Of a DNA stretch of 64,000 nt, positions 2,353 through 49,152 are shown piece after piece. The DNA is from an uncultured Nitrospiraceae bacterium (GTDB lineage Bacteria > UBA10199 > SBBF01): the NCBI GenBank assembly GCA_964592255.1, contig CAZQCI010000001.1, positions 15,885-79,884 of the forward strand, in the 5' to 3' direction. Below the pieces are notes generated by a model that did not search any database, was not told where the DNA came from, and saw nothing but the letters and a program-made list of their open reading frames with translations. The translations under genes and the position numbers were made by a program. Each line of letters starts with the position of its first letter. The stretch's first letter is position 1.

Positions 2353-2367
2353 GAGAAGTGGAGGAAT

Positions 2368-2478: not shown

Positions 2479-2493
2479 AGGAAGTCTATTTTT

Positions 2494-3189: not shown

Positions 3190-3190
3190 T

Positions 3191-4861: not shown

Positions 4862-4897
4862 TTATTAGAGGACCCGCCGCTGCCCAAGGGCTAAGGC

Positions 4898-5565: not shown

Positions 5566-5573
5566 AATAACTT

Positions 5574-6636: not shown

Positions 6637-6637
6637 C

Positions 6638-7045: not shown

Positions 7046-7058
7046 GTAGCCTTTAATT

Positions 7059-8015: not shown

Positions 8016-8028
8016 TAAAGGAGAATGT

Positions 8029-8517: not shown

Positions 8518-8619
8518 TCGCTTTTAAGTTTATTTTAAATTATAAAAAGTGTTCATCCAGCTCCCCCTTCCGAAAAGAGTTGAGGTTTTAAAACCTTCCG
8601 TGATAAGAAACCCCTTCCC

Positions 8620-15363: not shown

Positions 15364-15428
15364 GATTCCTCCTTTACTTGGAGGAGTTGAAGAGGAGTGA
15401 AGCGTTGTGGAACTCATAAGAGATCTCT

Positions 15429-32843: not shown

Positions 32844-34697
32844 ATGAAAACTTCCCCTATCTTCTTGGCTCTATTTTCACTAGCCCTTTACGGTTGCAGC
32901 GGAAAATCTTCAGACACTCACGACAACGCCATCACCATTGCTCCCTTGGAAAGAACACAAAACCCCAATGGAGGCACAGTGAAAGGGTCATCATCTAACA
33001 CCCCAAATACATCTTCTAATCCAAGCCCTAGTGGAAGCACCTCTGGAAGAGGCGGAAGCACAGGCTCCGAAAGAGATACAGACCCAAGTGGCGGCACAAG
33101 TTCAACCACACCCGAAGAGGAAACCGACACAACACCTCACGTCTCTTCTATTTCGATGGAACGCATCGGACGTTTTTCAACTGGCCTTTTTAATGAAGAT
33201 GCTCAAACGATTTTAGATTACGACTCCATCAATGAACGGGCTTTTGTCATTAATTCCAGCAGCGCTCACCCTTCTGTGTCTGTGCTGGACATGAGTGACC
33301 CGTTAAACATTGTCGAATATAGCGCCCATTCAGCCATCGAGCCGTATTATCCCGGTACAACCCCATTGGGTATTTCAATTTTTAAAACATACATTGCGAT
33401 TTCATACCAAGCTAATCCTAAAACCGATAATGGTTACGTAGTTTTTTACGACTCTAACACTTTTGCCGTATTGGCCAAAGTTACCGTAGGAGCAAATCCA
33501 GACATGATTACTTTTACGCCGGATGGTACTAAAGTTATTGTCGCCAATGAGGGCGAGCCGAGTGACGATTACACGACAGATCCCGTAGGTTCTGTGGGCA
33601 TTATTGAGCTTCCTGATGACATCACCGATTTGAGAAATAGCGATGTAAAAACAGCCAGCTTTACAAGTTTTAATGCTCAAAAAATAATTTTAAAAAACAG
33701 AGGCGTTCATTTTTCAACAACAGGGGCTAGTGTTGCCAAGGATTTAGAACCAGAATACGTTACGGTTTCGGACGATGGAGCCACCGCCTGGGTTGTCTTA
33801 CAAGAAAACAATGCTTTAGCCGTTGTCGATATTAACAGTGCCACCGTTACCAAAATACTTCCCTTGGGTGTAAAAGATTTTAATGACTCTTCTTTAAGCC
33901 ATGGACTTGATCCAAGTGATAAAGATGGCGGGGCCAACATTAACAATTGGCCTGTGTATGGCATGTACCAACCGGATGGTATTGCCAGTTATACCGTAGA
34001 TGGGAACACCTACCTCGTCACCGCTAACGAAGGAGACGGTCGGGATTATACTGGGTTTAGTGAAGAAGCTCGTGTGGAAGACTTAACTCTAGACTCTACG
34101 GCCTTTGCTGCTTATCCCGATCTAGATGATGAAGAAAATTTAGGCCGACTGAAAGTCACCTCTTCCAAAGGAGATACGGATGGAGATGGCGATTATGATG
34201 CTTTGTATTGTTTTGGAACACGCTCCTTTTCTATTTGGTCCAGTGTTGGAGAATTAGTTTATGACAGCGGCGCCGATTTTGAAGAAAAAATTCTAGAAAC
34301 TGCTGGAGAAGATTATTTCAACACAGACTATAATTCTAACGAAGGAGACTCCCGTAGTGATAATAATGGTCCTGAACCGGAACCCCTAACTGTCGGCACC
34401 ATTTATGATAAAACTTATGCTTTCATCGGTATGGATAGAGAAGGAGGAATTATGATCTATGATATCACCACTCCCTCCTCTCCTACTTTTGTGGATTATG
34501 TCCTTAACCGCAATTTCACCGCTGTCCCCTCCGACCGTTTGATCACCAGCGATGATGGAACCAGTGACTTATCTCCAGAAGGGATCCGCTTTATCTCTGC
34601 GGAAGACAGCCCCACCCAAGCTCCGCTTCTTCTTGTCGGTAATTCAGTAAGCGGCTCTACTACGGCCTATGAAATCGACGTGACACTCACGGAATAA
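32844..34697 (+). CDS. Lipoprotein with an S/T/G/P-rich linker and a large beta-propeller-like domain (choice-of-anchor-I/phytase-like repeats)
   Basis: Lipobox LALYGCSG. Linker …SSSNTPNTSSNPSPSGSTSGRGGSTGSERDTDPSGGTSSTTPEEETDTT. Repeated motifs of type LVTANEGDGRDY, VIVANEGEPSDDY and YCFGTRSFSIW. Confidence 0.5.
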   Translation: MKTSPIFLALFSLALYGCSGKSSDTHDNAITIAPLERTQNPNGGTVKGSSSNTPNTSSNPSPSGSTSGRGGSTGSERDTDPSGGTSSTTPEEETDTTPHVSSISMERIGRFSTGLFNEDAQTILDYDSINERAFVINSSSAHPSVSVLDMSDPLNIVEYSAHSAIEPYYPGTTPLGISIFKTYIAISYQANPKTDNGYVVFYDSNTFAVLAKVTVGANPDMITFTPDGTKVIVANEGEPSDDYTTDPVGSVGIIELPDDITDLRNSDVKTASFTSFNAQKIILKNRGVHFSTTGASVAKDLEPEYVTVSDDGATAWVVLQENNALAVVDINSATVTKILPLGVKDFNDSSLSHGLDPSDKDGGANINNWPVYGMYQPDGIASYTVDGNTYLVTANEGDGRDYTGFSEEARVEDLTLDSTAFAAYPDLDDEENLGRLKVTSSKGDTDGDGDYDALYCFGTRSFSIWSSVGELVYDSGADFEEKILETAGEDYFNTDYNSNEGDSRSDNNGPEPEPLTVGTIYDKTYAFIGMDREGGIMIYDITTPSSPTFVDYVLNRNFTAVPSDRLITSDDGTSDLSPEGIRFISAEDSPTQAPLLLVGNSVSGSTTAYEIDVTLTE

Positions 34698-34739: not shown

Positions 34740-35258
34740 TTGGATTCTAATTCAGGTATGAATAAAATCATCCCTGTACTCATTATATTTTTCCACCTTC
34801 TTTTTAGTTCTATCTCTATGGCAGAGGGCCTATGCACGCCAGAAGAACACACTTATTTTTCTTGTCCCATCAAAAGTGGTAAAACCCTTTCCGTCTGCGG
34901 TCAAAAAACGGCGGACAGCCTTAGCTGGCTGCAATACCGTTTTGGAACAAAACAAAAAATAGAACTAAGCTACCCAACAGATGCAAAAAACATTAAACCG
35001 GGGGAAGTCTTTTCCTTTTCTCATTATATGCGGGGTTCTCCTTTTACTCAAAACGATAATTTAAGTTTTACCAACGGTAGCACAACCTACAATGTCACCG
35101 TAGATTTAGAAGACGCTTCCGTAACCGATGATGGAAAAGAGCTTGTCAAATATGGTGTAGAAATCACCACGACTGAAAAACCAGACAACCCTATTTTTAT
35201 CTCGTGTACCAAACCCGTCACCAATCATTTGGACGAACTACAAGGGCTAATTCCTTAA
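34740..35258 (+). CDS. Hypothetical secreted protein (172 aa) immediately upstream of the Pel-like operon
   Basis: Signal-like N-terminus …MNKIIPVLIIFFHLLFSSISMAEG-LC. The lipobox is atypical. Cys-containing mature N-terminus (CTPEEHTYFSC). Possibly starts at the internal ATG (MNKIIP). Confidence 0.4.
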   Translation: MDSNSGMNKIIPVLIIFFHLLFSSISMAEGLCTPEEHTYFSCPIKSGKTLSVCGQKTADSLSWLQYRFGTKQKIELSYPTDAKNIKPGEVFSFSHYMRGSPFTQNDNLSFTNGSTTYNVTVDLEDASVTDDGKELVKYGVEITTTEKPDNPIFISCTKPVTNHLDELQGLIP

Positions 35259-35268
35259 GGAGAGTACC

Positions 35269-35637
35269 ATGGCGGATGCTAAAACCATTCTTGTTGTAGA
35301 AGATGAATATTTTTTGGCCGAATCTATCAAAGATCGTTTGGAATACTTAGGCTACCAAGTTTTACTGGCAGAACATGGTGAAGCCGCTCTTGAATTATTA
35401 AAAGAAAAAAAATGCAATTTGATTCTCTTAGACATCATCATGCCCGTTTTAGATGGCTGGGATACCCTCAAAGCCATTCGACAAAATTCTCAACTCAAAA
35501 ACTTGCCTGTCATTATGGTTTCAGCCAGAGCTACGGATCAAGACAAAGAAAAATCTCTGGCCTACGGAGCCAATGATCACCTGAACAAACCTTTCTCTTG
35601 GGATGATATGGCAGCCCTCATTAAAAAACACCTATGA
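35269..35637 (+). CDS. Stand-alone response-regulator receiver domain (CheY-like), first gene of the Pel-like operon
   Basis: Acidic pocket VVEDE. Phospho-acceptor D in LILLDIIMP. Conserved S (MVSA) and K (NKPF). 122 aa with no output domain. GGAG RBS. ATGA overlap with the next gene. Confidence 0.8.
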   Translation: MADAKTILVVEDEYFLAESIKDRLEYLGYQVLLAEHGEAALELLKEKKCNLILLDIIMPVLDGWDTLKAIRQNSQLKNLPVIMVSARATDQDKEKSLAYGANDHLNKPFSWDDMAALIKKHL

Positions 35638-36449
35638 GACAATGGCTTCTTGTTTTATGCCTGCTTTTCCTCACATCGTGTTCTTCACGTCTGCATTGGG
35701 TTATTTATTATGGATCCACACCGCCTAGTACACCGCTCAAAAAAGTCGATTGGGCTATTTTAGAACCAGACAATCTCCAGCCTTCTTCACTTAAAAATCC
35801 GAAAATTAAAACGTTAGGTTACATCAGCTTGGGTGAAATTAATAGCTCCCGTTCTTATTGGCCCAAAATTCAAAACTCTTCTTTTATTGTAGAAGAAAAC
35901 CCCAACTGGCCTGGAGCTTACCGTGTAGATATTCGCTCGACGGACTGGCAAGACTTATTGATCCAACAAATTCTTCCTTCCATATTAAATCAAGGATTTG
36001 ATGGTTTTTTCTTAGACACAGTAGATACAGCACTGTATCTGCAAGAAAAAGATCCCGTAAAATATTCACATTCTCAAGAAGCCATGGTGAATTTTATTAA
36101 GAAAATACGTGCTTCTTTTCCCAAAGCCCTCATTGTTCCCAATAATGGTCTCGAAATGCTGCCGGAAATCGGAAAAAATATCGACGCCATATTGGTAGAA
36201 GACCTTTATACCCGTTATGACTTCAACAACAAAACTGTCATCGCCACTCCAACTGAAGTAAGTCTAACCAAGGAAAAAATGTTGGATAAATTTACACACG
36301 ATTTCCACAAGCCCGTATTGGCTTTACTCTATGAAAATTCCACTAATACCCCTCTCACAAAACATGCTATAAGTAAGTGTAAAGAAAAGGATTATAGCTG
36401 GGCTGTCACAACAGTGGATCTGATGCACTGGAACGTGCCTACCCATTAG
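35634..36449 (+). CDS. Lipoprotein TIM-barrel glycoside hydrolase of the GH114/GH166 type (PelA hydrolase-domain-like)
   Basis: Lipobox FLTSCSS. Motif GFDGFFLDTVD is typical of the GH114/TM1410-like endo-alpha-1,4-hexosaminidase fold. 271 aa. 6-nt gap to the next gene. Confidence 0.55.
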   Translation: MRQWLLVLCLLFLTSCSSRLHWVIYYGSTPPSTPLKKVDWAILEPDNLQPSSLKNPKIKTLGYISLGEINSSRSYWPKIQNSSFIVEENPNWPGAYRVDIRSTDWQDLLIQQILPSILNQGFDGFFLDTVDTALYLQEKDPVKYSHSQEAMVNFIKKIRASFPKALIVPNNGLEMLPEIGKNIDAILVEDLYTRYDFNNKTVIATPTEVSLTKEKMLDKFTHDFHKPVLALLYENSTNTPLTKHAISKCKEKDYSWAVTTVDLMHWNVPTH

Positions 36450-36455
36450 CCATTT

Positions 36456-38525
36456 TTGAAAAATTTTATTCAACAATTGATTATTGTATTTTCTCTGTTG
36501 CTCCCTGCTCTTTCGGGTTTAGCAGCCTCTCAAGAGCCTCTTTCACGGAAAGTATTAGCGCTTTATGAATCCAGCGTTTATTCAGATCCAGCCTCTACAC
36601 TCATTCATCGGACGGCAGAACTCACATTAAACTATTTGGGCCTACAAGTGGAATACCGCCCCGTGGAAAGCCCCCTTCCTTCTGATGATGACATGCAGCC
36701 TTACATAGGCTTCATCACTTGGTTTACCAATGAAAATGCCGTCCCCCATCCGGATCTTTACTGTCAATGGATGCGCCATCAGATTCAAACAGGAAAAAAA
36801 ATAGTTCTCTTAGAAAACTGGGGATTGTTTCAAGACAAAAAACGTCATCTCAGCCCCATATGTGAAGACACTTTTAAAAAATTGGGAATAGAATACAAAG
36901 GGGAATACGCCGACAACCCCTACTTTTTAGAAGTAGCGGAACAAAAAACAGAATGGGTAGAATTTGAACGAAAAATTAATTTTACCGAAAACCTCACTTA
37001 CAGTTGGTTTAAAGCCATTGATCCCCAAAGTACCGTCTACCTTAAAGTTCGTAGAACGGACATGGTGAATAGTGAATCAGACATGGTTGTCACCACCCCT
37101 CAAGGTGGCTTTGTAGCACCAACCTGGCTCATCTATAACGACACAGAAACGAATCATATTCAATGGCGTGTTAATCCTTTTTTATTTTTTGAAAAAGCGT
37201 TTGACGTACCAGACTGGCCGCGCCCCGATACAACAACTTTAAATGGAAACCGAATTTTTTATAGCCACATTGATGGTGATGGCATTTTTAATATTTCTAA
37301 AATTGATCAAAAATCATTTTCTGGAGAAGTGATCTTAAATGAAATTTTAAAGCAATACCCCTCACTCCCTATCACACTCGGCCTCATCACAGGCTACATG
37401 GACTTGAAGGAATTCAACAATCCACGCACTCAAAAGCTGTACCGCGAGATGATAGAATTGCCGCAAGTAGAAATTGCCTCGCATGGCTATGCCCATCCTT
37501 TGGTTTGGAAAACAGGAGAACTGTCTTTAAAAATTCCAGATTACAACATGAATGCCGAAAAAGAAATCAACGGATCTATTCAGCAACTCAACCAAATGAT
37601 TGAGTCTTTAGGAATCACGTATAAAAAAACCTCTCTCTTTCAATGGACAGGAGACTGCACCCCTTCCGCCATACAAATTAAAATGGCAGAACAAACGGGG
37701 TTACCTAATCTTAATGGAGGTGGTGGGCGCCAAGATGACAATTTCTATGGTTTAGCGGCCCTCTACCCCATCGGCATTACAAAAGAAGGCGCCCATCAAA
37801 TTTATGCCGGGGCTTTTAACGAAAATAATTTCACCAATCTGTGGAGCGGCCCTTATTATGGGTTTGCCCACTTACTCTCCACATTGGACAAAACCGAAAA
37901 CCCTCTACGCCTTAAAGCCGTAGATGTTTATTATCATTTTTACAGTGGGGAACGTTGGGCTTCACTAAAAGCTGTGAAAAAAATTTATGATTCCTTTTTA
38001 AACAAAAATATCTTCCCCATTCATGCCAGCCAATACGCCAGAATTGCTGAAGGATTTTACACAACTGAAATTAAGCGCATTGCCAGTGGTCATTTTGTCG
38101 TTAGTAAAAATGGAGTCTTACAAACCATTCGTTTTGACCATGAAAAAAGAAATCTAGACCTCTCTCAATCGACAGGTGTTCTAGGTTTTATTCACGATAA
38201 AAATGCCCTGTATGTTTCATTAGATGAATCGGAAAACCACGTCATTCAACTATCAGAGGCTCAGCCCTCTTCTCCTTACTTAATTCAATCTACTTTTCAG
38301 GTTTCGCAACTAACAAAAAAAGTGGAGGGCTTTTCGTTTCAAAAACAAGGATGGTTAAAAAGTCATTGCCTTTGGGGAGGGCTAAGACCCAACCACAGTT
38401 ACCGAGTCATAACACAAGATGAAACTCAACGATTAACAACTTCTTCAACAGGGGAATTGAAAATAGACTTTCAAAAAAGTGAAAATGGATTAACCCCCGT
38501 CTTAGTAAGGGTTGAAGCAGAATAA
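36456..38525 (+). CDS. Periplasmic polysaccharide deacetylase (CE4/NodB-homology) multidomain protein, equivalent to the C-terminal two-thirds of PelA
   Basis: Signal peptide MKNFIQQLIIVFSLLLPALSGLAA. CE4 motifs FYSHIDGDG (MT1-like) and EIASHGYAHP (HxxxHP, MT2). 689 aa. Overlaps the PelB-like gene. Confidence 0.6.
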   Translation: MKNFIQQLIIVFSLLLPALSGLAASQEPLSRKVLALYESSVYSDPASTLIHRTAELTLNYLGLQVEYRPVESPLPSDDDMQPYIGFITWFTNENAVPHPDLYCQWMRHQIQTGKKIVLLENWGLFQDKKRHLSPICEDTFKKLGIEYKGEYADNPYFLEVAEQKTEWVEFERKINFTENLTYSWFKAIDPQSTVYLKVRRTDMVNSESDMVVTTPQGGFVAPTWLIYNDTETNHIQWRVNPFLFFEKAFDVPDWPRPDTTTLNGNRIFYSHIDGDGIFNISKIDQKSFSGEVILNEILKQYPSLPITLGLITGYMDLKEFNNPRTQKLYREMIELPQVEIASHGYAHPLVWKTGELSLKIPDYNMNAEKEINGSIQQLNQMIESLGITYKKTSLFQWTGDCTPSAIQIKMAEQTGLPNLNGGGGRQDDNFYGLAALYPIGITKEGAHQIYAGAFNENNFTNLWSGPYYGFAHLLSTLDKTENPLRLKAVDVYYHFYSGERWASLKAVKKIYDSFLNKNIFPIHASQYARIAEGFYTTEIKRIASGHFVVSKNGVLQTIRFDHEKRNLDLSQSTGVLGFIHDKNALYVSLDESENHVIQLSEAQPSSPYLIQSTFQVSQLTKKVEGFSFQKQGWLKSHCLWGGLRPNHSYRVITQDETQRLTTSSTGELKIDFQKSENGLTPVLVRVEAE

Positions 38526-41499
38526 AATGAATTACTCACGGACTCAAATTATTATCTTCTTTATCGCCATTGTGGTTCTAGGATGGCTTTTATACCCGCG
38601 TACGCTTTTTCTTGGATTTATTTATGAAGGCTCAGCTTCATTAGAAAAATCAGAAAATTATTATCAACAGTATTTGGCTAAAAAACCTTTCAACCGCTTT
38701 GCCACATTACGTTTGGTCGATATCTACGAACGTATGGGGGAACCTGAAAAAGCCACTCCTCTCTATACCAATCTCTATTCCCATCGCCTTCACGATTGGG
38801 ATTTGGCTCAAAAATATTTAAAGCATTTAGAAAACAAAGGCGACTTTGAAGCCGCCTATAAACTAAGACAAGAAATAGCCCATAACTTTTTTGACGAAAA
38901 AAATATCCCACGAGAAAAAATTCAAGATCTGCTGACGCAAGCATTTAAATATGCTCAATGGAAACAAAAAACGGAAGAGGCTTATCAGCTCTTACAAAAA
39001 ATAGCGGATATTTCAAAAAATCCAGACGCCACTCTTCAAACCCTACATTGGCTCGATTTAGGCCTGAAACATACCGATAAAATCATCGCACGGCTCAAAA
39101 AACAATTGGCTGAAAACCCACATGATAAAAATAGTCGCCGTGAACTTATTTCTGTCCAAATGGCATCTAAAAACTTTGAAGAAGCTTACCAAACTATTGA
39201 CGAGGGATTAACGCAAGATCCGCGTGACACGACTTTACTCAAACAACGTATTCAACTTGATGCAATAACTGGAAAATCGGAAATAGAAATCAAAGATACG
39301 CTCAAAATACTCAATCTGGCGACATTATCTTCAGAGGAGACAATCTATTTCAAGCTACACTTAGTATTTTTGTATCAAAAAATAGGACGTCTGGAAGAAG
39401 CGCTCCCTCTTTTTGAAGAACTCACAAAGACCAACCCTAAAAATAAGGACATTTGGAAAAACTGGGCTTTTGTCTTAACACAGGATCAAAAAATAGATGC
39501 GGCTCTCAAGGTATTGGAAAAAAGTCGGTTTTATTTTCCTGATGATCTGGACTTAGAAGAACAACAAGTCTCTCTTCTTCTCTACCAGAAAAAAGACACC
39601 TCTTCCGTTGCTTTGTATGACGATTTTCTAAAGAAAAAACCCAAACCTTCTTTTGCCTTAGACGTGGCCTATCTTCTACTGGATCAAAAAGAAAAAAACA
39701 AAGCCCAAAACTGGTTAAACCGTGCATTAAAACTATTCCCCGAAAATGATAAACTCATCTTTTTGCTAGCGGATGTGAATGTTGAATTAGGTTTGCTTGA
39801 AGATGCTGATTTTTTGCTCACTTCTTATCTAAAAAAACACCCAAACAATTCTACAGCTCATTTAAAAACCGCTCATTTAGCAGCTATACGCTTTCAATTT
39901 GCCGCGTTAGAGCAACATTTACAGCAATACTTAAGCCTTGAAAAAAATAAGTTCCAATCTCTCATCGCAGCCGGACAAGAATATTTGTTCGCAGGCCTTA
40001 ATTCACAAGCGCAAAACTATTTCCAAAAAGCCCGTGACCAAAACCCGAAAGACCCGACTCCCTGGTTTTGGCTATCTGCAGCTTATTGGAGTCAAAACTC
40101 AAAAAAGTCCTCACAACAATCAGCCCATCAGGCAAGTCTCCTTTTCTCTAAAAAGAAAAGTAATACTACTTGGGAACGATTAAGCCTTAAAGCTCAAGCA
40201 ATGGCTCGTTTTGATGAAGACATACGCCAAAAATATAAAAAAGCCTTGGAGCGCCATCCAAAAGATTTTGATTTTTACGCTGACTTTGCGGACGTGCTTC
40301 TTATGGAACAAGAAAACACCTTGGCTGCCGAAATTATTAAAACAATCGAGCAAAAATTTTCACAAAGACCAGAGGATGTCATTTCTCTTAAAGTGCGTTT
40401 AGCTCAACAGCAACACGATTGGAAAGAAGTGATTGATTTACTTAATAATCACCCAAAACCTTATTTAAGAGACACAAAAACTTTGGCGGAAGCTTACGCC
40501 GCCAATGGGCAATGGAAAAAAGCCATGGACTATTATCAGCAATTATCCTCATCCTCCGATGAGGAAGCTCAGAAAAAACTAGGTTTAACCGAGGAAGCAG
40601 CCAAACTCCATGCCGAATATGATCATCGCATTGGTCAAAACTTTCATTATCTGGATTTAGGAAACGATACCATCATTGAAGAGGGAATTTTCACTAAACA
40701 TTACTTAAATGAATCACTCAAGATAACGGGTGAATTTGTCTGGGGGCACTATCAATCCCCCGGAATTGATTTTGAGGGAAACGCAGAATATGGTAGGATC
40801 CTTCTTTCAAAACAATGGGGGCCCCAATGGCAACTTGAAGGAGGTCTGGGGTTTGGGGTGAGTGAGCAACATGAAACAGTGTCACCTTTATTAGGAATAC
40901 GCTACAAACCTTGGGAGAAACTTTTATTGGAAATGCAAGGAAGTCTTCGGGAATTAAGAACGGATCTTCCCCAATCGGTAGCCCGGGGCGCACTAAAAAG
41001 CCAAGTGTCTTTTCAGTGGAATTGGCAAGCTACTTCCCGTTTTAATTTTTCCGGCACTTATCGTCTGGGAAAAAATAGCTTAAGCGGAGGAGAAAAAGCT
41101 TGGGAACAAAGTTTTGAACCGTCGCTTTCGTTTCTATTGCTGCGCCAACCCGATGTATTTATAGGCTACCAGTTCAGCCTGGTTCATGTAGATGACAATG
41201 ACGGTTTTTTAAGAAAACTCCCCTTGCTACCCGATGTGAGGGCGCATTATTTAACAGCTGGGTTTAATCATCCCATCACCCCAACCTTTAAGGTGGCAAG
41301 TGGCTTTTTTCTGGGTGAAGACACGGCAAGAAACCTTCATTTTTTTGAAGGCGATTTATGGGGGGCCAATGCCTCCTTTGTGTGGAACCTCACCTCATGG
41401 TTAGATATGACAGGTTTTTATAGTTACGGCAGAGAAACTCTCACTGAAAGCGCCGGTCAGAGCCATAATCTCAACTTCGGCTTTTCAGGACATTGGTAA
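38512..41499 (+). CDS. pelB: PelB-like outer-membrane export protein: N-terminal TM anchor, long TPR array, C-terminal beta-barrel porin
   Basis: TM IIIFFIAIVVLGWLLYP. About 700 aa of TPR-like helical repeats. C-terminal region of alternating amphipathic beta strands ending …NLNFGFSGHW (aromatic terminus typical of OM barrels). Alternative start ATG 38527. Confidence 0.7.
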   Translation: MKQNKMNYSRTQIIIFFIAIVVLGWLLYPRTLFLGFIYEGSASLEKSENYYQQYLAKKPFNRFATLRLVDIYERMGEPEKATPLYTNLYSHRLHDWDLAQKYLKHLENKGDFEAAYKLRQEIAHNFFDEKNIPREKIQDLLTQAFKYAQWKQKTEEAYQLLQKIADISKNPDATLQTLHWLDLGLKHTDKIIARLKKQLAENPHDKNSRRELISVQMASKNFEEAYQTIDEGLTQDPRDTTLLKQRIQLDAITGKSEIEIKDTLKILNLATLSSEETIYFKLHLVFLYQKIGRLEEALPLFEELTKTNPKNKDIWKNWAFVLTQDQKIDAALKVLEKSRFYFPDDLDLEEQQVSLLLYQKKDTSSVALYDDFLKKKPKPSFALDVAYLLLDQKEKNKAQNWLNRALKLFPENDKLIFLLADVNVELGLLEDADFLLTSYLKKHPNNSTAHLKTAHLAAIRFQFAALEQHLQQYLSLEKNKFQSLIAAGQEYLFAGLNSQAQNYFQKARDQNPKDPTPWFWLSAAYWSQNSKKSSQQSAHQASLLFSKKKSNTTWERLSLKAQAMARFDEDIRQKYKKALERHPKDFDFYADFADVLLMEQENTLAAEIIKTIEQKFSQRPEDVISLKVRLAQQQHDWKEVIDLLNNHPKPYLRDTKTLAEAYAANGQWKKAMDYYQQLSSSSDEEAQKKLGLTEEAAKLHAEYDHRIGQNFHYLDLGNDTIIEEGIFTKHYLNESLKITGEFVWGHYQSPGIDFEGNAEYGRILLSKQWGPQWQLEGGLGFGVSEQHETVSPLLGIRYKPWEKLLLEMQGSLRELRTDLPQSVARGALKSQVSFQWNWQATSRFNFSGTYRLGKNSLSGGEKAWEQSFEPSLSFLLLRQPDVFIGYQFSLVHVDDNDGFLRKLPLLPDVRAHYLTAGFNHPITPTFKVASGFFLGEDTARNLHFFEGDLWGANASFVWNLTSWLDMTGFYSYGRETLTESAGQSHNLNFGFSGHW

Positions 41500-41503
41500 A
41501 GAT

Positions 41504-41869
41504 ATGGGAAAAAAAATATTGTTAATCGACGATGAAGTAGATTTTACTGAAGTGGTGGGCACCTTGCTGCGTTTTCATGATTTCGACGTAGACACTATCA
41601 ATGAGCCTCTTCTAGCTCCTGAAGCTATTAATAAAAATAATTATGATCTCATTGTTAGCGATTTGATGATGCCCGATATCAACGGCTTTGAATTGGTCGA
41701 GAAGATTAGGACCATGCCGCGCTACAAAGACACCCCAATCATTACCTTGTCGGCAAAACTCCTTAACGATGAAGAAAGAAAACAATTGCTCCATCATGGT
41801 GTTCATTGTTTATCTAAACCATTCGAGCCCAGTGGATTGGTAGATCAAATTTGTCAATTACTTGGCTAA
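41504..41869 (+). CDS. Second stand-alone CheY-like receiver domain, between the pelB- and pelD-like genes
   Basis: LLIDDE acidic pocket. D in DLIVSDLMMP. S in ITLSAK. K in LSKPF. 121 aa, no output domain. The start lies 4 nt after the pelB stop. Confidence 0.8.
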   Translation: MGKKILLIDDEVDFTEVVGTLLRFHDFDVDTINEPLLAPEAINKNNYDLIVSDLMMPDINGFELVEKIRTMPRYKDTPIITLSAKLLNDEERKQLLHHGVHCLSKPFEPSGLVDQICQLLG

Positions 41870-41905
41870 AGACCGTCTCTTCTTTTGTCATAAAAAGACA
41901 AAAGA

Positions 41906-43294
41906 ATGAGTAGGGAGAAAATTTCGGATTTGAAACGATACTCTTATTTGTACGAAATTCCTCTTTTTTACTTGGTTTTATGTGGAATCAATTTCTACCT
42001 GGTGCCGGAATATCCTTCTTTTTTTGGCATTGATCCCCATCCTTATTGGTTAGGCATTGTATTATTTGCCTTCCGGTATGGATTAGTCCCCTCACTCATC
42101 TCAGGCGTGTTATCAGCCCTATTATTTTTATTCGGAATATTCTTATTTGGAGAACGCTATCTTTTTGAAGACGCCGTTTTCTTCCTTCTACCCTCTTTCT
42201 TCATCATTGTTTCAACTTGCCTAGGTTTCTTAACACGCCAAACACATAAAAAAATAATCCAATTCCAAGACGCCGAAATAAGCGCCAGTCAAAAGGAAAA
42301 ACATTTAAACGAAGAAATAAAAACCCTAACCGAAATTAATAATAACCTTGAAAAAAGAATAGTCACTCGTATGTCAACCTTGGTGACTTTATATGAAGGA
42401 GCCAGGAGGCTTGAAACTCACGATATCGAAGAGCTTTACAAATCAGGCTTGGACTTTATCACTAAAACATTAGGAGCCGATGAAGCAGCCATTTATCTTA
42501 AACAAAACAATGAATGGCATTTAAAAGAAAGCATTGGCTGGAAAGAGTACGAAAAGCATCCAAAAATATTAAAATGGTCCGAGGGCCTAACCGGACTTGC
42601 AGGATCTACGAATAAGATTGTCAGCATTCGTGATTTTATGGGTCACAGCCCTAAAGAACTCCCTAATATATTTAGCGACGCACTAGTAGCCGCTCCTTTA
42701 CGCTTAGGGGAGCATGGCAAAGTCATCGGTGTAATTGCCATTCAACGAATGCCTTTTTTAAGTTTCACTAGCTCTTCAGTCAACCTCTTCTCTTTTCTCA
42801 TGAACTGGATTTCACGTTCCGTAGGAGAAGCTTCGTATATTCAAGAGTTAAAAGAACAAGAAATTATCGATCCAGAACTTCAGGTATATTCTCATTCTTA
42901 TTTTTTATCTCGTGCACGGCAAGAATTCTTACGATCAAAAAACTATTATTTACCTCTTGGGCTTGGAGTTGTCTCCTTCGATCAAACCACTCCTTTATCT
43001 GCCAAAGAAAATAAACGCCTTCTCTTAGCCATAGCCCAGCTCCTTAAACAAAACATACGTGAAATGGATGTGGTTGCACGCTTTCCTTCTTCAGAACACC
43101 CTTTTTCTATTCTCTTCATCACAGCTAGCCCTAAACAAACCGAAGAGATGACTGAAAAAATAACGCATGCTTACCAGGAATTAAAATTAGTCGATGCTAA
43201 AGGTAAGCCCCTGCCTCTTATTAAAATTAAATTGTCTCATTTTTCCCCACAAGTGGCCGATATCGATCAAATGCTTCGAGAGGCTCTCATATGA
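41906..43294 (+). CDS. pelD: PelD-like inner-membrane c-di-GMP receptor (4 TM + GAF + degenerate GGDEF)
   Basis: Four N-terminal TM helices. GAF-like region (LGADEAAIYLKQNNEWHL…VIGVIAIQRMPF). C-terminal degenerate cyclase-like domain. An RxxD (REMD) lies five residues upstream of where a degenerate GG(D/E)EF would sit (ARFPS…). ATGA overlap with the next gene. Confidence 0.6.
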   Translation: MSREKISDLKRYSYLYEIPLFYLVLCGINFYLVPEYPSFFGIDPHPYWLGIVLFAFRYGLVPSLISGVLSALLFLFGIFLFGERYLFEDAVFFLLPSFFIIVSTCLGFLTRQTHKKIIQFQDAEISASQKEKHLNEEIKTLTEINNNLEKRIVTRMSTLVTLYEGARRLETHDIEELYKSGLDFITKTLGADEAAIYLKQNNEWHLKESIGWKEYEKHPKILKWSEGLTGLAGSTNKIVSIRDFMGHSPKELPNIFSDALVAAPLRLGEHGKVIGVIAIQRMPFLSFTSSSVNLFSFLMNWISRSVGEASYIQELKEQEIIDPELQVYSHSYFLSRARQEFLRSKNYYLPLGLGVVSFDQTTPLSAKENKRLLLAIAQLLKQNIREMDVVARFPSSEHPFSILFITASPKQTEEMTEKITHAYQELKLVDAKGKPLPLIKIKLSHFSPQVADIDQMLREALI

Positions 43295-44328
43295 TGCATG
43301 CACGATTCATGTTTTTTTGGGGTTTAAGTGGTCTCTGTGAGTTTCCGTTTCTCCAAACTCTATTAGGTTTTCCTTATTTTTTTAAAGGGCACACTCCCTT
43401 TGTGGTCTTACTGCATGTGACGGGATCCGTATTGCTCTTTTTTTGTGTCCCCAAAGGAGAAGGCTGGTTTCATCCGGCACGCATGGGCGCAAAAACCTTT
43501 TTCTACATGGGGCTTTTTTTGCCGTTTGTAGGATGGATCATTTCCGGAATCTTATACATTCATTTCATCAAAGAAAAAGACAAACCCTATACTATAAACC
43601 AGGAAGATGATGATAATTTTTTCATGGACTCATTTCCTTCTTTATCCCTTTCTATTCAGCTTCCACGGCGAAATCGTCTTCAAAAACAATTGGATTTTAT
43701 TCCTTTAGTAGACATCATCCGAGGACCGGAAGAGATAGAGCTTAAACGTGGAGCTATCGAAAAACTTGCTCAAATTAATACCCCAGAAACAATCGACCTA
43801 CTTTTCTCTCTACGTAGCGATCCAGTCATGGAAGTGCGTTTCTATGCTACGTCTGCTTTGGGAAAAATCAAAAAAGAATTTGATGAACGTCTTGATGCTG
43901 CCAAAGAAGAAATAAAAAAAACAAGCCCCAGCAGTAAGGCACGACTCAACTTAGCTCAGGCTTACTTAGAATATGCCCAATCTCATCTTTTGGATAAAGT
44001 AACAACTTCCGCCTACGAAACAGAAGCTCTGTTTCACTTGCAGGAAGAGCTCAACAACCCCTTCCCTTCCCTACAAGCCTTTTGGATGCTCATTGATTTA
44101 TACAAAAATCATCGTCGATGGGAGCAAGCATTAGATTTACTAGAAAAATTGGAGCACCACCCGGAAACAGAAATTATTTTAGTTTTAAAAAGTAAAATTG
44201 AAATTATTTATTTGATGCAACGCTATCAAGAAATACCGGTTTTATTAGAAAAACTGACTCAAAAAAATAAATTACCAGACGAATGGACCGCTCTAGCACA
44301 ATGGTGGGGGGCCCATGTTGAACATTAA
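43291..44328 (+). CDS. pelE: PelE-like inner-membrane protein (N-terminal TM helices plus HEAT/TPR-like helical repeats)
   Basis: Hydrophobic N-terminal 100 aa. Helical repeats follow (PETIDLLFSLRSDPVMEVRFYATSALGKI; LNLAQAYLEYAQSH). Position between pelD and pelF. 345 aa. Confidence 0.5.
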   Translation: MMHARFMFFWGLSGLCEFPFLQTLLGFPYFFKGHTPFVVLLHVTGSVLLFFCVPKGEGWFHPARMGAKTFFYMGLFLPFVGWIISGILYIHFIKEKDKPYTINQEDDDNFFMDSFPSLSLSIQLPRRNRLQKQLDFIPLVDIIRGPEEIELKRGAIEKLAQINTPETIDLLFSLRSDPVMEVRFYATSALGKIKKEFDERLDAAKEEIKKTSPSSKARLNLAQAYLEYAQSHLLDKVTTSAYETEALFHLQEELNNPFPSLQAFWMLIDLYKNHRRWEQALDLLEKLEHHPETEIILVLKSKIEIIYLMQRYQEIPVLLEKLTQKNKLPDEWTALAQWWGAHVEH

Positions 44329-46279
44329 AAAAATTAAAGAACTCATTCATGGACCCAGTGAAGACGGTCGATTTGAAGCCTTTTTAGAGCTCTTTGAATC
44401 GGAAGATCCCAAAGCTTTGGAGGAAATACATCATATACTCACATCTCCCGACCCAGTGATTAAAATTAAATTCTTGCGCTTCTTATCACACGCAGAATCA
44501 GAAAAATCTTTGCCATTAATTGTTACATGCTTAAAAGATAAAAATCCCATCGTCATCAACGTGGCTCGAAAGGTTTTTGAAAAAAATACTTTTCCTTTAA
44601 AGTTTCGAAGCCTTCTTCCATTTCTCAACGCCCCTCACGATGATTTATTTACTTATGCGGTAAAAGCGTTAGCTCAGGCGGGTATCACCGAAATTATTGA
44701 ACCTTTATTTGAACAGCTAAAAAGAGTGGGGGAAGAAAGGCAGCTGATTATTTTATCGGTTTTACGTTGGCTTCCCGAAGAAAGAATGATTCCTGTTCTC
44801 CTGTCTTATCTTAAATCAAAAAATGACAATATCCGCTATAAAACTTTAATGGTCTTTGGAAGTCTATTGAGTGCAGGCCATAGTTCGGCACGCAAACATC
44901 TACTTCCCTCTCTCAAGGATAACAATGCCTCAATTCGGCAAGCTGTTTTATGGTGTTTAAAAAGAGCCCCTTCAAAAAAAGATTATTCAATTTTTTTAAA
45001 TTACTCACAAAAAGATCCAGATCCTTTAGTCAGACAAGAAGCTCTAATAGGGCTGAGTACTTTTCCCCCACGAAAAATTATTTTGCCTATTCTTTCTCTC
45101 ATGGCGACTGAAAAATCACGCATGGTTTTATTGAAAGGAGAAGGACTTCTTTTGGGAATAAACATTCAAGATCTGGAATCCGAGTTAAGTAAAGCGCTTC
45201 AATCCAAAAATACCAAAATTAGAGAAAGAGCCCAACTGTTAATGTCGGAATTAGGACGCAATTCGGAAAGTTTTTGTAAAAAATTACTCGAAAAAGCCAT
45301 GCGGATCAAATCACCTAAAGAAAGACTCACTTTAATTGAAGCACTAGGCAATACACAAAGTCACAATGCCATTGCCTGGCTGGAAACCCTGCTCAACACA
45401 GATCCCTTAACATCCTATGCAGCTATTTCGGCCTTGTTAAAAATTTGGGGCGAAAACCCACAACAACCCATTCTTAAATATTTACAACATCAAAAATCAG
45501 CCATTACCCGCCAAAACGTACTCAAGCATCTGGTTAAAAAAAATATCCCTTTGAAAAGCAATACTGATTTAGAAAAATATCTGATGGGTCTTTTAGAAGA
45601 CGCCAATTTAAATATTCGATATCTAGCAACTCAAGCCTTGCTCAAGATCAACAGCTCAATGCTGCTACACCCCTTAATGAAAACATTACTTAACGAGTCT
45701 GACCCCACAACTTTTCAACTTTTGCGACAAAGTATTTTATCTTTACTAGCAAAAAACCCCCAATTAATCGGTCCAATGTTAAAATTGTATTATCAAGACA
45801 GTAAGGCTCTTCATACTTTAATCAACCTGATGAGTGAAATCGACTTGGAAGGATCTCATTCTTTAGAACTATTAATCATTCTCTTATCCCCACCTTTCAT
45901 GCTGGATAACTCGCCTTTGCTTCAAGAAGCGGTCCGTTTCATCCTCATCCAATATCTTCAAGATAAAATTCGCTTAGAAGATGTGGTTGAAAGCGTATCT
46001 ACTATTCCACAACGGGATTTGATTTTTGATTGTTTATATACTCAACTAGAAAATCAATCTAGCTCTATGCGCCCTATTTTTTCTAAATCTAAAATTGAAA
46101 CCTGGCTTCATAACGACTGCCTGCTCTCCCCTTCCTTATTACGGCTACTCGCTTTAAGTCAGGATGAAAAATTAATCGCTGTATTAGTTCAATTCACATC
46201 ACAAAAACCTTTAGCACCATACAAAGCAGAATTGATCCATACTCTTAATCGGATGATTTGGCAGGAGGCCTGCTCATGA
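44315..46279 (+). CDS. Large HEAT-repeat (PBS-lyase-type HEAT-like) protein embedded in the Pel-like operon
   Basis: 654 aa. More than 10 repeats of about 30 aa with the pattern D/NPxVRxxAxxALxxIG (e.g. DPVIKIKFLRFLS, NASIRQAVLWCLKRAP, DPLVRQEALIGLS, NLNIRYLATQALLKI). No TM or signal. Overlaps both neighbours (14 and 22 nt). Confidence 0.6.
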   Translation: MLNIKKIKELIHGPSEDGRFEAFLELFESEDPKALEEIHHILTSPDPVIKIKFLRFLSHAESEKSLPLIVTCLKDKNPIVINVARKVFEKNTFPLKFRSLLPFLNAPHDDLFTYAVKALAQAGITEIIEPLFEQLKRVGEERQLIILSVLRWLPEERMIPVLLSYLKSKNDNIRYKTLMVFGSLLSAGHSSARKHLLPSLKDNNASIRQAVLWCLKRAPSKKDYSIFLNYSQKDPDPLVRQEALIGLSTFPPRKIILPILSLMATEKSRMVLLKGEGLLLGINIQDLESELSKALQSKNTKIRERAQLLMSELGRNSESFCKKLLEKAMRIKSPKERLTLIEALGNTQSHNAIAWLETLLNTDPLTSYAAISALLKIWGENPQQPILKYLQHQKSAITRQNVLKHLVKKNIPLKSNTDLEKYLMGLLEDANLNIRYLATQALLKINSSMLLHPLMKTLLNESDPTTFQLLRQSILSLLAKNPQLIGPMLKLYYQDSKALHTLINLMSEIDLEGSHSLELLIILLSPPFMLDNSPLLQEAVRFILIQYLQDKIRLEDVVESVSTIPQRDLIFDCLYTQLENQSSSMRPIFSKSKIETWLHNDCLLSPSLLRLLALSQDEKLIAVLVQFTSQKPLAPYKAELIHTLNRMIWQEACS

Positions 46280-47736
46280 TCGACGTATGCCTCCTCTTAG
46301 AAGGAACCTATCCTTATGTCGCTGGAGGAGTATCCACGTGGGTTCATCAACTTATTTCTTCCATCAAAGATTTACGCTTTGGTATTTTATTCATTGCACC
46401 TTATTCAGACCCTACACGCACTCTAAAATATGAAGTACCCAACCATGTGCTCTATCTGAAAGAAATTTATTTACACGACTACAACTTAGAATTACGACCC
46501 AAAAGAAAACCAACCTCACAAGACTATGAACTGATTAAAAAATTTTATGAAAATGTTCAAAAAGAGGATTTCAAGTTATTTGCTAACTTTGTTCGCCTCT
46601 TCCAAGGAGAAAACTCATGTTTCGGCATCCAAAATCTTTTTAATTCGGAGCAAACCTGGGATTTGCTTACTTATTTTTACGAACGATATGCGGGTGATAT
46701 TTCTTTCATTGATTATTTTTGGACTTGGCGAGGTACCCATTTACCCTTGATGCAAATGCTCACTGCAGAAATTCCACGAGCTAAAATTTACCATGCCGTC
46801 TCAACCGGTTATGCAGGTCTTATTGGAGCCATTGCTAAACAATTCAATCAAGGAAAGTTTTTTTTAACAGAACACGGGCTCTATACTCACGAGCGCATGC
46901 TAGAAATCTCACAAGCCTCTTGGATTTATGAACAGAAAAAAAGAGATTTCAAAGCCGAAAAAGGATTTTCTTTTTTTAAGCAATGGTGGATTACCATTTT
47001 TGATACTCTCAGTCGTTTAGCCTACGATTCAGCCGACAATATTTATACTCTATTTGAAGGCAACAAAAGACGGCAAATTTTACAAGGCGCACAAGCCGAT
47101 AAAATCACAGTCATCCCTAACGGCATTGATGTTATCGCCTTTGAAAAAATTGAGCGGAGTAAAAAAACACACCCACAAATAGGTCTTATTGGACGAGTTG
47201 TCACAATTAAAGATATCAAAACATATATTCAAGCAGCCCGTATTGTTCTTCAAAAGTTACCGACAGCCTCTTTTTACATCATTGGCCCTACGGATGAAGA
47301 GCAAGAATATTTTGAAGAATGTAAAATGATGGTGGAAGCCCTGCACATGGAAAATAATATTATCTTCACGGGGCGAGTAGACCCAAAAACCTATTATGCG
47401 TTTCTGGACTTAGTAGTCCTTACCAGTATTTCAGAAGCCCAACCTTATGTCATTTTAGAAGCCAATGCCGTAGGCATACCGGTAGTAGCCAGCGATGTGG
47501 GGGCTTGCCGAGAAATGCTGGAAGGAAGCAGTTCTTTGGATCGGACCTTAGGAGTGAGTGGTAAAATCACAGAAGTATCCAACCCTGACGATACAGCTAA
47601 AGCCATTGTAGAGATTATGACCAACGAAACCCTGTATCGGCATATGAGCCAAACGGGAAAACAAAGAGTGAAACAATATTATGACGATCGTGATTTGATC
47701 AGCAAATACATAAATATTTACGAAAAAAACTTATAA
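46258..47736 (+). CDS. pelF: PelF-like cytoplasmic GT4 glycosyltransferase with an N-terminal DUF3492-type domain
   Basis: N-terminus MIDVCLLLEGTYPYVAGGVSTWVHQLI matches the PelF/DUF3492 start. C-terminal GT4 region (EAQPYVILEANAVGIPVVASDVGACREML). Confidence 0.8.
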   Translation: MAGGLLMIDVCLLLEGTYPYVAGGVSTWVHQLISSIKDLRFGILFIAPYSDPTRTLKYEVPNHVLYLKEIYLHDYNLELRPKRKPTSQDYELIKKFYENVQKEDFKLFANFVRLFQGENSCFGIQNLFNSEQTWDLLTYFYERYAGDISFIDYFWTWRGTHLPLMQMLTAEIPRAKIYHAVSTGYAGLIGAIAKQFNQGKFFLTEHGLYTHERMLEISQASWIYEQKKRDFKAEKGFSFFKQWWITIFDTLSRLAYDSADNIYTLFEGNKRRQILQGAQADKITVIPNGIDVIAFEKIERSKKTHPQIGLIGRVVTIKDIKTYIQAARIVLQKLPTASFYIIGPTDEEQEYFEECKMMVEALHMENNIIFTGRVDPKTYYAFLDLVVLTSISEAQPYVILEANAVGIPVVASDVGACREMLEGSSSLDRTLGVSGKITEVSNPDDTAKAIVEIMTNETLYRHMSQTGKQRVKQYYDDRDLISKYINIYEKNL

Positions 47737-47745
47737 CTTATTCTT

Positions 47746-49152
47746 ATGGCTGGCATTGGCTTCAGATTACAAAAACTTCTTGCGGGTGAGTCCTACACTG
47801 ACTTGATACGGGCTTACTTATACTCTTCTGTTATCACTTCAGGACCTATGATCATCGTCATGATCACTTTAATGCTGACTAACTCTCTCATTAGTCATAA
47901 CCTAGATTTAGAAGCAGCTAAAAATATACTCCCACTCATCATTTACGTTTATGCTTTTTCCATGGTTGGCGTAGGGCCTTTTGTCTATGTCGTCACCAGA
48001 AATATTGCAGATAAATATTATTTGAAAGAAATAGAATCTTTCACTCCCATTTACTTTGCAACATTGGAAATTGTATTTATATCTCAAACTTTACTCGCCT
48101 TGCCTTTTCTTGTCTTTTCTTCTTTTGATTTCACCACTAAATGGGTCGTACTTTGTCTCTATCTTCTAGTAAGCGGAATTTGGGTAGCCATGCTTTTTCT
48201 TTCTGCCGCCAGAAGTTACTTGTGGATTGTAGGAGGCTTTATTTTTGGAGGCCTAGCCGGGCTAGCCTTTTCCTGGTTTTTAAGTCGGATAGAGGGGCCT
48301 CTTGGTTTTATTAAGGGCTATACGCTAGGCCAAGGAGTCACTTTTTTAATTTTATGCCTGCGTATTTTTAAAGAGTTCGGTTATCGCTTTAACCATGATT
48401 ATGGTTTTCTACTTTATTTCAAACGTTACAATTCTTTGGCCTGGGTTGGTTTTTTTTATTATGCCGGTATCTGGGTCGATAAATTTATATTTTGGTTTTT
48501 TGGACCCGAAAGCAACATGGTTCATGGTTTAAAAATTTATAATAATTATGACACCCCTCTTTTCTTATCATTCATCAGTGTCATTCCTTCCATGGCTTTT
48601 TTTCTCATTCAAATGGAAACCAACTTTGTACGGCATTACCATTCTTACTACAAAGCCATACGCGAGCGTGGTTCCCTGCTTCTCATCAGAGAAAAAAAGA
48701 AAAAAATCATCGAAACTCTCAGCCAGCATTTTCAAAAATTTGCCATTCTACAGGGGCTTTTTACAGCCGTAATCATCCTATTTATTGTTCCATTATCTGA
48801 AGCCCTTGGGCTTAACCCTTATCAAGTAGGCATTCTACGGATCAGCCTGTTAGGATCTTACTTACTCATGGGTTATGTGATGGTACTTAATATTTTATTT
48901 TATTTTGAACTACAAAAAGAAGCGTTTTGGATTTCTGCCATTTTCTTTTTCGGAAATGCCCTCTTTACTTTTGCCACTTTAAAAATTGGATTTGCCTCTT
49001 ACGGTTTTGGATATACTTTAGCCTCTTTTGTAAGTGTCATGGTAGGCTTTATCGTATTAAATCGTCGGTTAGAAAAACTGAACTGCTTAACCTTTATGAA
49101 TCAACCTATTTTAGTCCCTCAGTTTAAATTAGAAAATGAAGAGCAAAACTAA
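47746..49152 (+). CDS. pelG: PelG-like polysaccharide exporter (MATE/MOP-like, 12 TM)
   Basis: N-terminus MAGIGFRLQKLLAGESYTDLIRAYLYSSVITSGPMI resembles the conserved PelG start. 468 aa, polytopic. Confidence 0.7.
   Translation: MAGIGFRLQKLLAGESYTDLIRAYLYSSVITSGPMIIVMITLMLTNSLISHNLDLEAAKNILPLIIYVYAFSMVGVGPFVYVVTRNIADKYYLKEIESFTPIYFATLEIVFISQTLLALPFLVFSSFDFTTKWVVLCLYLLVSGIWVAMLFLSAARSYLWIVGGFIFGGLAGLAFSWFLSRIEGPLGFIKGYTLGQGVTFLILCLRIFKEFGYRFNHDYGFLLYFKRYNSLAWVGFFYYAGIWVDKFIFWFFGPESNMVHGLKIYNNYDTPLFLSFISVIPSMAFFLIQMETNFVRHYHSYYKAIRERGSLLLIREKKKKIIETLSQHFQKFAILQGLFTAVIILFIVPLSEALGLNPYQVGILRISLLGSYLLMGYVMVLNILFYFELQKEAFWISAIFFFGNALFTFATLKIGFASYGFGYTLASFVSVMVGFIVLNRRLEKLNCLTFMNQPILVPQFKLENEEQN

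Follow-up and report, generated by a model that had tools for sequence, protein, structure and literature searches.

A Pel-type operon with additional genes

We analysed a 64-kb stretch of DNA (hereafter the window) from an uncultured Nitrospiraceae bacterium (GTDB lineage Bacteria; UBA10199; SBBF01), corresponding to positions 15,885 to 79,884 of contig CAZQCI010000001.1 in assembly GCA_964592255.1. At 35269-49152 on the plus strand it carries a Pel-type exopolysaccharide operon of ten tightly packed genes, which include genes for a HEAT-repeat protein and two receiver-only response regulators. Eleven open reading frames (ORFs) run head to tail on this strand between 34740 and 49152, and family and structure-database searches assigned ten of them, in the order response regulator 1 (RR1), PelA hydrolase (PelA_H, a lipoprotein), PelA deacetylase (PelA_DA), PelB, response regulator 2 (RR2), PelD, PelE, HEAT-repeat protein (hereafter HEAT), PelF and PelG. 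A first-pass annotation had proposed a Pel-type locus with homologues of PelB, PelD, PelE, PelF and PelG in this order, together with a split PelA, two receiver-only response regulators, a 654-residue HEAT-repeat protein and no PelC inside the operon. Our searches recovered all of these elements, with hidden Markov model (HMM) and profile matches for the ten operon ORFs, and confirmed the ORF coordinates, the gene order and the plus-strand orientation. The same annotation had begun the locus at 34740; the 172-residue ORF at that position is not conserved, however, and the operon runs from 35269. It had also described overlaps of 4-22 nucleotides (nt) at most junctions. The genes are indeed tightly coupled, but only five of the nine within-operon junctions, about half, overlap (by 4-14 nt), the remainder being gaps of 4-36 nt. 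Overlapping stop and start codons join PelD to PelE, PelE to HEAT and HEAT to PelF, the last of these overlaps being 4 nt if PelF starts at the ATG at 46276, or 22 nt if it starts at the TTG at 46258.

Identification of the Pel core proteins

For comparison we built small HMMs and profiles from five annotated proteobacterial plasmid pel loci (Paraburkholderia, Pseudoalteromonas, Azonexus, Burkholderia and Azospirillum). On sequence grounds, the assignment of homologues of PelF, PelG, PelA, PelD and PelE is secure. PelF (46276-47736), a cytoplasmic glycosyltransferase of family GT4, scores 497 bits against the NCBIfam PelF equivalog NF038011, for which the cut-off is 100 (5.2e-149). It is not a generic GT4 enzyme, as a DUF3492 domain (PF11997, 3.3e-82) precedes the GT4 domain, and it keeps the E-x7-E motif as EAQPYVILE. 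Its N-terminus, MIDVCLLLEGTYPYVAGGVSTWVHQLI, was found as quoted in the first-pass annotation. The start codon is most likely the ATG at 46276, which overlaps the HEAT stop codon in the sequence ATGA and gives a protein of 486 residues. Identity to the proteobacterial PelF proteins sampled from plasmids is only 35-41%. PelG (47746-49152, 468 residues) is a polytopic inner-membrane protein with about 11 hydrophobic helices and the N-terminal MAGIGF...SGPMI pattern noted at first pass, and it matches PF16933 at 1.2e-120 over residues 1-450.

PelD (41906-43294, 462 residues) has about four membrane helices, a GAF domain and a weak, degenerate GGDEF domain. It matches the five-sequence canonical HMM at 2.9e-20 and the canonical profile with an hhalign probability of 99.6% (E 3.8e-24). 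The sequence REMD (residues 385-388) aligns with the canonical RxxD of the I-site and is followed by PSSEH where GGDEF would be expected; RxxD is retained in nine of ten PelD proteins of the variant. PelE (43291-44328, 345 residues) has two membrane helices (residues 34-56 and 69-93) and a cytoplasmic helical-repeat domain of HEAT_2/TPR type. It matches the canonical HMM at 2e-5 and, profile against profile, gives an hhalign probability of 97.8% (E 1.2e-12).

PelA is represented by two genes. PelA_H (35634-36449, 271 residues) is a GH114/GH166-like protein (PF03537 Glyco_hydro_114, 1.6e-21). Its residues 13-16, LTSC, form a lipobox, and it matches the PelA hydrolase-domain structures 5tcb (1.4e-12) and 9cgy (about 1e-12). 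The glutamate of its ILVEDL motif (residues 186-191) aligns with that of the AVAVES motif in the PelA of Pseudomonas aeruginosa, which by an estimated residue offset is probably the catalytic E218. PelA_DA (36456-38525, 689 residues) carries its own signal peptide and covers the C-terminal three quarters of PelA, matching residues 241-830 of 9cgy at 1.3e-68. It keeps the motifs HIDGDG (271-276), SHGYAH (342-347) and YYHFYSG (492-498), whose counterparts in family CE21 supply the catalytic base, metal triad and acid (PMC12022489). PelA-type deacetylases are now classed in CE21 (PMC12022489), and by its motifs the separate deacetylase, initially called a CE4 protein, is such a PelA-type CE21 enzyme and not a classic CE4.

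The PelB-like export protein (38512-41499, 995 residues) matches many tetratricopeptide repeat (TPR) families, for example TPR_19 at 1.9e-34. It has an N-terminal hydrophobic helix (residues 8-38), ends in ...GFSGHW, and occupies the conserved position of pelB after pelA. Against the canonical PelB HMM the match is at the level of the TPRs only. The C-terminal 320 residues align with the canonical PelB C-terminal profile over 199 columns, with an hhalign probability of 89.9% (E 1.7e-6), compared with 0.1-0.3% for cross-family profile controls; a homologue search with this region returned a single match. The identity of PelB is therefore supported by its TPRs, by gene position and by the C-terminal profile match at 90% probability, and a C-terminal porin is likely.

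The HEAT-repeat protein and the two receivers

HEAT (44315-46279, 654 residues) matches HEAT_2 in five stretches (1.8e-36), and we found neither a membrane helix nor a signal peptide in it. Its AlphaFold2 model is an all-helical solenoid of 40 helices with a predicted local distance difference test (pLDDT) score of 88.6, and a Foldseek comparison of this model with the PDB returned generic solenoids only (importin-beta, CAND1, PP2A-A), with TM-scores of 0.36 or below. We considered whether HEAT could be a duplicated PelE and rejected this, as BLASTP gave an E-value of 1.0 and hhalign gave probabilities of 7.6% and 25% over a single repeat. By homologue searches HEAT belongs to a small family whose members are about 650 residues long; a HMMER search of 1.84 billion representatives returned about 95 full-length, single-stretch members or clusters of 640-670 residues, counted at 50% identity. 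No HEAT-family gene was present among 72,556 plasmids.

RR1 (35269-35637, 122 residues; PF00072 Response_reg, 1.2e-28) is encoded by the first gene of the operon, which overlaps the PelA_H gene by 4 nt, and RR2 (41504-41869, 121 residues; PF00072, 1.8e-20) by a gene just upstream of pelD. Each consists of a receiver domain only; no output domain and no membrane helix were found in RR1. All phosphorylation residues are present in both, namely the acidic pocket E11/D12, the acceptor D55, S85 and K107 in RR1, and D9/D10, the acceptor D53, S83 and K105 in RR2. These residues are conserved in nine aligned receivers, four of RR2 and five of RR1 type, from the window and three of the related loci described below (L001, L002 and L005). 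RR1, RR2, HEAT and PelF are without a hydrophobic segment, which indicates that all four are cytoplasmic.

Recurrence of the locus

Related neighbourhoods were reached through HEAT, PelD or PelF, and each extended at most 10 kb to either side of the matched gene, or less at contig ends. The order PelA_DA-PelB-RR2-PelD-PelE-HEAT-PelF-PelG was observed in L001, L002, L005, L009, L014, L015, L016, L021 and L023, of which L005 and L015 are incomplete at one end. The order is the same in L022 and L024 except that RR2 is missing, while the short loci L010-L013 show PelB-RR2-PelD. The layout is thereby confirmed as recurrent and not a one-off, and the insertions to which the first-pass annotation had drawn attention, a receiver before pelD and a HEAT gene, recur in many genomes and metagenomes. 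The loci come from metagenome-assembled genomes (MAGs) labelled Deltaproteobacteria/UBA10199, Elusimicrobia and others. The PelF clade comprises over 100 clusters with 54-66% identity, most of which derive from MAGs labelled Deltaproteobacteria, with Elusimicrobia members at 47-51%; one member bears the isolate name HK-STAS-UBA10199-2.

HEAT lies between pelE and pelF in all 14 loci that cover this interval. Of the 14 related loci with a HEAT-family gene, 13 have it adjoining Pel genes, four of them reached via HEAT and nine via PelF or PelD; for the fourteenth, L005, there is no gene table, and tblastn places the HEAT match between the PelE and PelF matches. RR2 lies between pelB and pelD in 13 of the 15 related loci that have no PelC (14 of 16 with the window included), and before pelD in 16 of 18 loci overall. 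RR2 orthologues are 43-60% identical to that of the window, as against 25-30% identity between RR1 and RR2, and the RR2 gene overlaps pelD by 4 nt in L015, L016 and L023. One to three RR1-like genes precede pelA or head the operon in L002, L005, L009 and L014.

In L009, a gene for a hybrid REC-HisKA-HATPase-GGDEF kinase (2455-4086, plus strand) lies directly upstream of the response regulators that head the operon. The GGDEF motif of this protein reads TFKEF, after an RKGD element resembling an I-site, and the domain is probably not a cyclase. An orthologous HATPase fragment, interrupted by the contig end, occupies the same place in L005 (37-546, plus strand). This hybrid kinase is likely to be the cognate kinase of the response regulators. 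Because orthologous kinase genes adjoin the response regulator cluster in two relatives, the first-pass suggestion of a phosphorelay-controlled, modified Pel machine has become more plausible, the mechanism itself being one that we infer.

One locus, L022, appeared to encode a fusion, with PelE and HEAT called as one protein of 991 residues (7029-10004). We rejected the fusion, as another frame encodes the conserved PelE C-terminus ...EWQTAVFWWSDD and then a stop codon; the call reflects either a frameshift in this contig of 4x coverage or a real pseudogenising mutation.

Several further observations concern individual loci. L002 is the closest relative of the window, and the two have the junction between pelG and rodA in common. 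It contains a HEPN/nucleotidyltransferase pair, toxin-antitoxin-like, inserted between pelF and pelG (13495-14230, minus strand). This relative (L002/L004) was submitted under the name 'Nitrospira sp.', unlike the other close relatives, which bear the label Deltaproteobacteria/UBA10199, and the name may reflect a binning or naming inconsistency. L016, from an Elusimicrobia MAG, has between pelF and pelG a 333-residue gene consisting of EF-G domains III, IV and C only (11476-12477, plus strand), and an OmpR-type regulator and a CsgG-like gene after pelG. Just downstream of pelG in L023 (13004-15255) are an extra stand-alone receiver and a second HEAT protein of unrelated length (625 residues) on the opposite strand.

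Absence and history of PelC

PelC, a dodecameric outer-membrane lipoprotein, is described as an essential hallmark of Gram-negative Pel systems (PMC12141448), and it was not found in the window. A five-sequence PelC HMM gave no match in the six-frame translation of the 64 kb or in 11 loci of the variant, and the gene lists of four further loci contained no PelC candidate and no unassigned small gene in any operon, so that PelC is absent from 15 related loci in all. The HMM appears sensitive enough, because it detects a 185-residue lipoprotein at 1.7e-26 in L025, a locus reached via a distant member of the HEAT family and arranged GH114-PelA_DA-PelB-PelC-RR-PelD-PelE-HEAT-PelF-PelG. In a second deep locus, L026, a GNA1162-like gene (a weak Pfam match) precedes RR-PelD-PelE-HEAT.

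The position of RR2 here, between pelB and pelD, is that of pelC in each of the five proteobacterial loci. The shared position suggested that RR2 had replaced PelC, an idea that we rejected since PelC and a response regulator stand side by side in L025 and L026. A neighbour-joining tree of PelF separates all HEAT-type loci from the canonical loci; in it, the group without PelC has the PelC-bearing L025 as its sister, and L022 and L024, which have no RR2, form a pair. The tree suggests that PelC was lost once, and later, in the clade of the window. As judged from these loci, it is a sub-clade that lacks PelC, and not the HEAT-type variant as a whole.

The split of PelA

PelA_H is encoded by a separate gene in the window, L005, L016, L021, L022 and L024; in L002 the two parts are fused, and in L001 and L009 no PelA_H adjoins PelA_DA. 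The split in the window and L005 is real, because PelA_DA carries its own signal peptide in both. Separate PelA_H and PelA_DA proteins are established in Gram-positive bacteria (PMC7112168), and a split PelA occurs together with PelC in the plasmid locus of a cultured Azospirillum (L020, see below). The split is therefore neither new nor constant in the clade, and it is not the novelty of the locus.

Comparison with known systems

Compared with the pelABCDEFG operon of the Pseudomonas aeruginosa type, the window has homologues of both catalytic parts of PelA and of PelB, PelD, PelE, PelF and PelG in the same relative order. It also has the I-site of PelD and the N-terminal membrane helix, TPRs and C-terminal domain of PelB. 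It differs in having no PelC, a PelA split in two, an extra HEAT protein between pelE and pelF, and two receiver-only response regulators. Its PelB is also shorter, at 995 residues compared with 1164-1324 in four proteobacterial examples encoded by a single gene.

The Bacillus cereus type, pelDEA_DAFG with a separate pelA_H (PMC7112168), likewise has a split PelA, no PelC and a PelD/E/F/G core. The window differs from it in gene order, in its Mla and SurA-like genes, which are those of a diderm, and in having a PelB-like gene where Gram-positive loci have no outer-membrane export component. Neither a HEAT protein nor embedded receivers have been reported from Gram-positive pel loci. A plasmid locus of Azospirillum thermophilum (L020, NZ_CP029356.1) resembles the window in its separate GH114-type hydrolase, PelA_DA, PelB, PelD, PelE, PelF and PelG, and so a split PelA occurs in a cultured Gram-negative bacterium. 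In L020, however, PelB is split, PelC (annotated as GNA1162 family) and a PelX-like epimerase are present, and there is no response regulator and no HEAT. The deeper loci L025 and L026 share the order RR-PelD-PelE-HEAT with the window, and L025 also its split PelA, PelF and PelG; they differ in having PelC just before the response regulator and, in L025, a full-size PelB of 1175 residues.

Cellulose secretion of the Escherichia coli type employs the cytoplasmic accessory subunits BcsE, which has a degenerate receiver and a GGDEF domain, BcsQ and BcsR. Here the likeness would be one of functional analogy only, in that soluble cytoplasmic extras, one of them receiver-like, accompany a synthase controlled by cyclic di-GMP (c-di-GMP). 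There is no sequence relationship, the receivers of the window keep their phosphorylation residues, and HEAT has no Bcs counterpart.

PelC served as the query by which Gram-negative pel operons were found (PMC7112168), and surveys of that kind would have missed loci such as this one. A survey of operon evolution (PMC7112194) describes rearrangements, fission of pelB and gains of loci, and the terms 'response regulator' and 'HEAT' appear nowhere in its text. A 2025 preprint reports divergent 'pel-like' clusters recognised by pelFG only. Our full-text literature searches returned no paper that joins PelF with a HEAT repeat, or a Pel operon (PelD/PelE) with embedded receivers. As far as searched, then, the variant is undescribed, as had been supposed for the gene combination as a whole, but the claim narrows: a split PelA was already known, the lack of PelC belongs to a sub-clade, and the defining additions are the 650-residue HEAT protein and the receiver beside pelD.

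A working model and its alternatives

From these observations, we consider it likely that the locus is a working member of a conserved, undescribed branch of Pel synthase-dependent exopolysaccharide systems, with HEAT and RR2 as extra core parts. In such a system PelF would polymerise a GalNAc-type (N-acetylgalactosamine-type) sugar in the cytoplasm, an activity assumed from the canonical system, and PelD, with its c-di-GMP I-site kept, would form an inner-membrane platform together with PelE and PelG. The PelA_H lipoprotein and the separate PelA_DA would process the polymer in the periplasm, and the TPR-plus-porin protein PelB would export it. HEAT, translationally coupled between pelE and pelF, is most likely a scaffold of the PelD-E-F-G complex, a role suggested by its constant position, by the overlap of its gene with pelE and pelF, and by its cytoplasmic location. 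RR2 would most likely act at the protein level as an on/off switch set by phosphorylation, in addition to c-di-GMP, and RR1 may belong to the same phosphorelay, the kinase of which is encoded next door in some relatives. In the sub-clade of the window PelB presumably exports without a lipoprotein ring, in the manner of the porins PgaA and BcsC. Control by phosphorylation and PelC-independent export would most likely be the consequences of this arrangement.

A more specific form of the model holds that HEAT and RR2 are true synthase subunits, that phosphorylated RR2 docks on HEAT/PelD and gates polymerisation, and that the PelC ring is dispensable. We put this forward tentatively, as a possibility that is more doubtful than not.

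We stress that a number of points weigh against the branch with HEAT and RR2 as core parts. The case is built from genes, the polymer and the contact of HEAT and RR2 with the synthase being deduced from them, and all relatives are metagenome-derived and come from uncultivated organisms. RR2 is not indispensable, as the sister loci L022 and L024 are without it. No histidine kinase, diguanylate cyclase or UDP-GalNAc epimerase gene was found within the 64-kb window. An AlphaFold2 model of the PelB C-terminus, made from a two-sequence alignment, has a pLDDT of 35.5 and is unusable, and a profile search of the PDB with this region did not reach PelB, which leaves the 90% profile match as the support for the porin. 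The PelF tree has no support values. PelC, finally, could be encoded elsewhere in these genomes, the scan having covered the window and the locus flanks.

Among the alternatives, the one that survives best takes the receivers as phosphorelay intermediates or phosphate sinks whose output lies elsewhere, in transcription or in the level of c-di-GMP, with Pel itself controlled only via PelD and c-di-GMP as in Pseudomonas. We regard this as unlikely. The tandem response regulators at the operon heads of L005 and L009, with the hybrid kinase upstream, look like a multi-step relay tied to c-di-GMP; PelD keeps its I-site, and L022 and L024 are presumably functional without RR2. On the other side, RR2 is a distinct orthologous group, as the identities within it and to RR1 given above indicate, it is fixed beside pelD and often translationally coupled to it, and the kinase of L009 has TFKEF in its GGDEF domain and is probably no cyclase.

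A second alternative, which we judge rather improbable, is that the polymer of this cluster is chemically unlike Pel, with HEAT reflecting a different step of assembly or substrate supply and not regulation. The low identity of PelF to the sampled proteobacterial plasmid proteins and the lack of an epimerase gene within the window are in keeping with this, and the authors of the operon survey warn that divergent pel loci may yield different products (PMC7112194). However, PelF scores almost five-fold over the NCBIfam equivalog cut-off, and both the motifs of the PelA-type deacetylase and a PelA_H/GH114-type hydrolase, which related records annotate as an endo-alpha-1,4-polygalactosaminidase, are kept.

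The third alternative, that PelC is encoded elsewhere in the genome and export is canonical, draws on the scope of our PelC search, which took in the window and flanks of at most 10 kb per side of the matched gene. It appears improbable to us, since every PelC-bearing locus examined (five proteobacterial and two HEAT-type) has pelC within the operon, after pelB and before pelD, the sixteen pelB-pelD junctions of the clade of the window are without it, and the PelC HMM has its positive control in L025.

That the response regulator and HEAT genes are unrelated passengers inside a pel operon is very improbable: real passengers do exist between pelF and pelG (the HEPN/nucleotidyltransferase pair of L002 and the EF-G fragment of L016), but HEAT is found in all 14 loci and RR2 in 16 of the 18, at the same positions and with the same coding overlaps in lineages that share only 46-66% identity in PelF, and HEAT-family genes stand beside Pel genes in the 13 loci counted above, with L005 placed by tblastn.

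Genomic context of the operon

Chromosomal housekeeping genes flank the operon, with those for MurJ and a choice-of-anchor I protein upstream and those for RodA, PBP2, MreC and MreB downstream on the opposite strand, the end of pelG being convergent with rodA on the minus strand. The choice-of-anchor I domain protein (32844-34697, plus strand; 617 residues, 1.2e-124) lies directly upstream of the pel region and has a lipoprotein-like N-terminus and a long linker rich in Ser, Thr, Gly and Pro.

Between it and the operon is the 172-residue ORF (34740-35258, plus strand), which has a signal peptide and ends 10 nt upstream of RR1. It had no match in Pfam, NCBIfam or the PDB, and the first seven related loci to be compared (L001-L006, L009-L013) contained no homologue of it; on these grounds we rejected it as a PelC analogue. 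The ORF probably stands outside the Pel system; it may encode a secreted protein specific to this lineage and be co-transcribed with the operon, or it may be no gene.

Elsewhere in the window are an aa3-type cytochrome c oxidase operon, assembly genes included, at 1177-8015 (plus strand), an MlaDEF-like lipid transport operon at 12493-15474 (minus strand) and a gene for a SurA-like chaperone at 56683-57846 (plus strand); together these genes indicate an aerobic, diderm organism. A 238-residue protein at 28270-28986 (plus strand) contains an NAD glycohydrolase translocation F5/8 type C domain (PF25302, 4e-22), in a context unusual for this domain. Four ORFs of 640, 532, 416 and 378 residues, at 17841-19763 (minus strand), 24933-26531, 30969-32219 and 54838-55974 (all plus strand), had no Pfam family at the thresholds used.

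Implications for Pel biosynthesis

Pel is among the most widespread polymers of the biofilm matrix, and its machinery is known almost entirely from Pseudomonas aeruginosa. In the view derived from that species, PelC is an essential hallmark and the binding of c-di-GMP to PelD is the post-translational switch. The branch described here, its functions read from genes, departs on both counts. If HEAT and RR2 are indeed synthase subunits, this would be an exopolysaccharide synthase that responds to c-di-GMP and is also switched directly through two-component phosphorylation, and a PelB that works without PelC would show that the PelC ring is dispensable for export of Pel across the outer membrane. 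The loci of this branch may thus serve as natural experiments on what holds PelF at the membrane, on which other switches a synthase can have, and on whether PelB can export without a ring.

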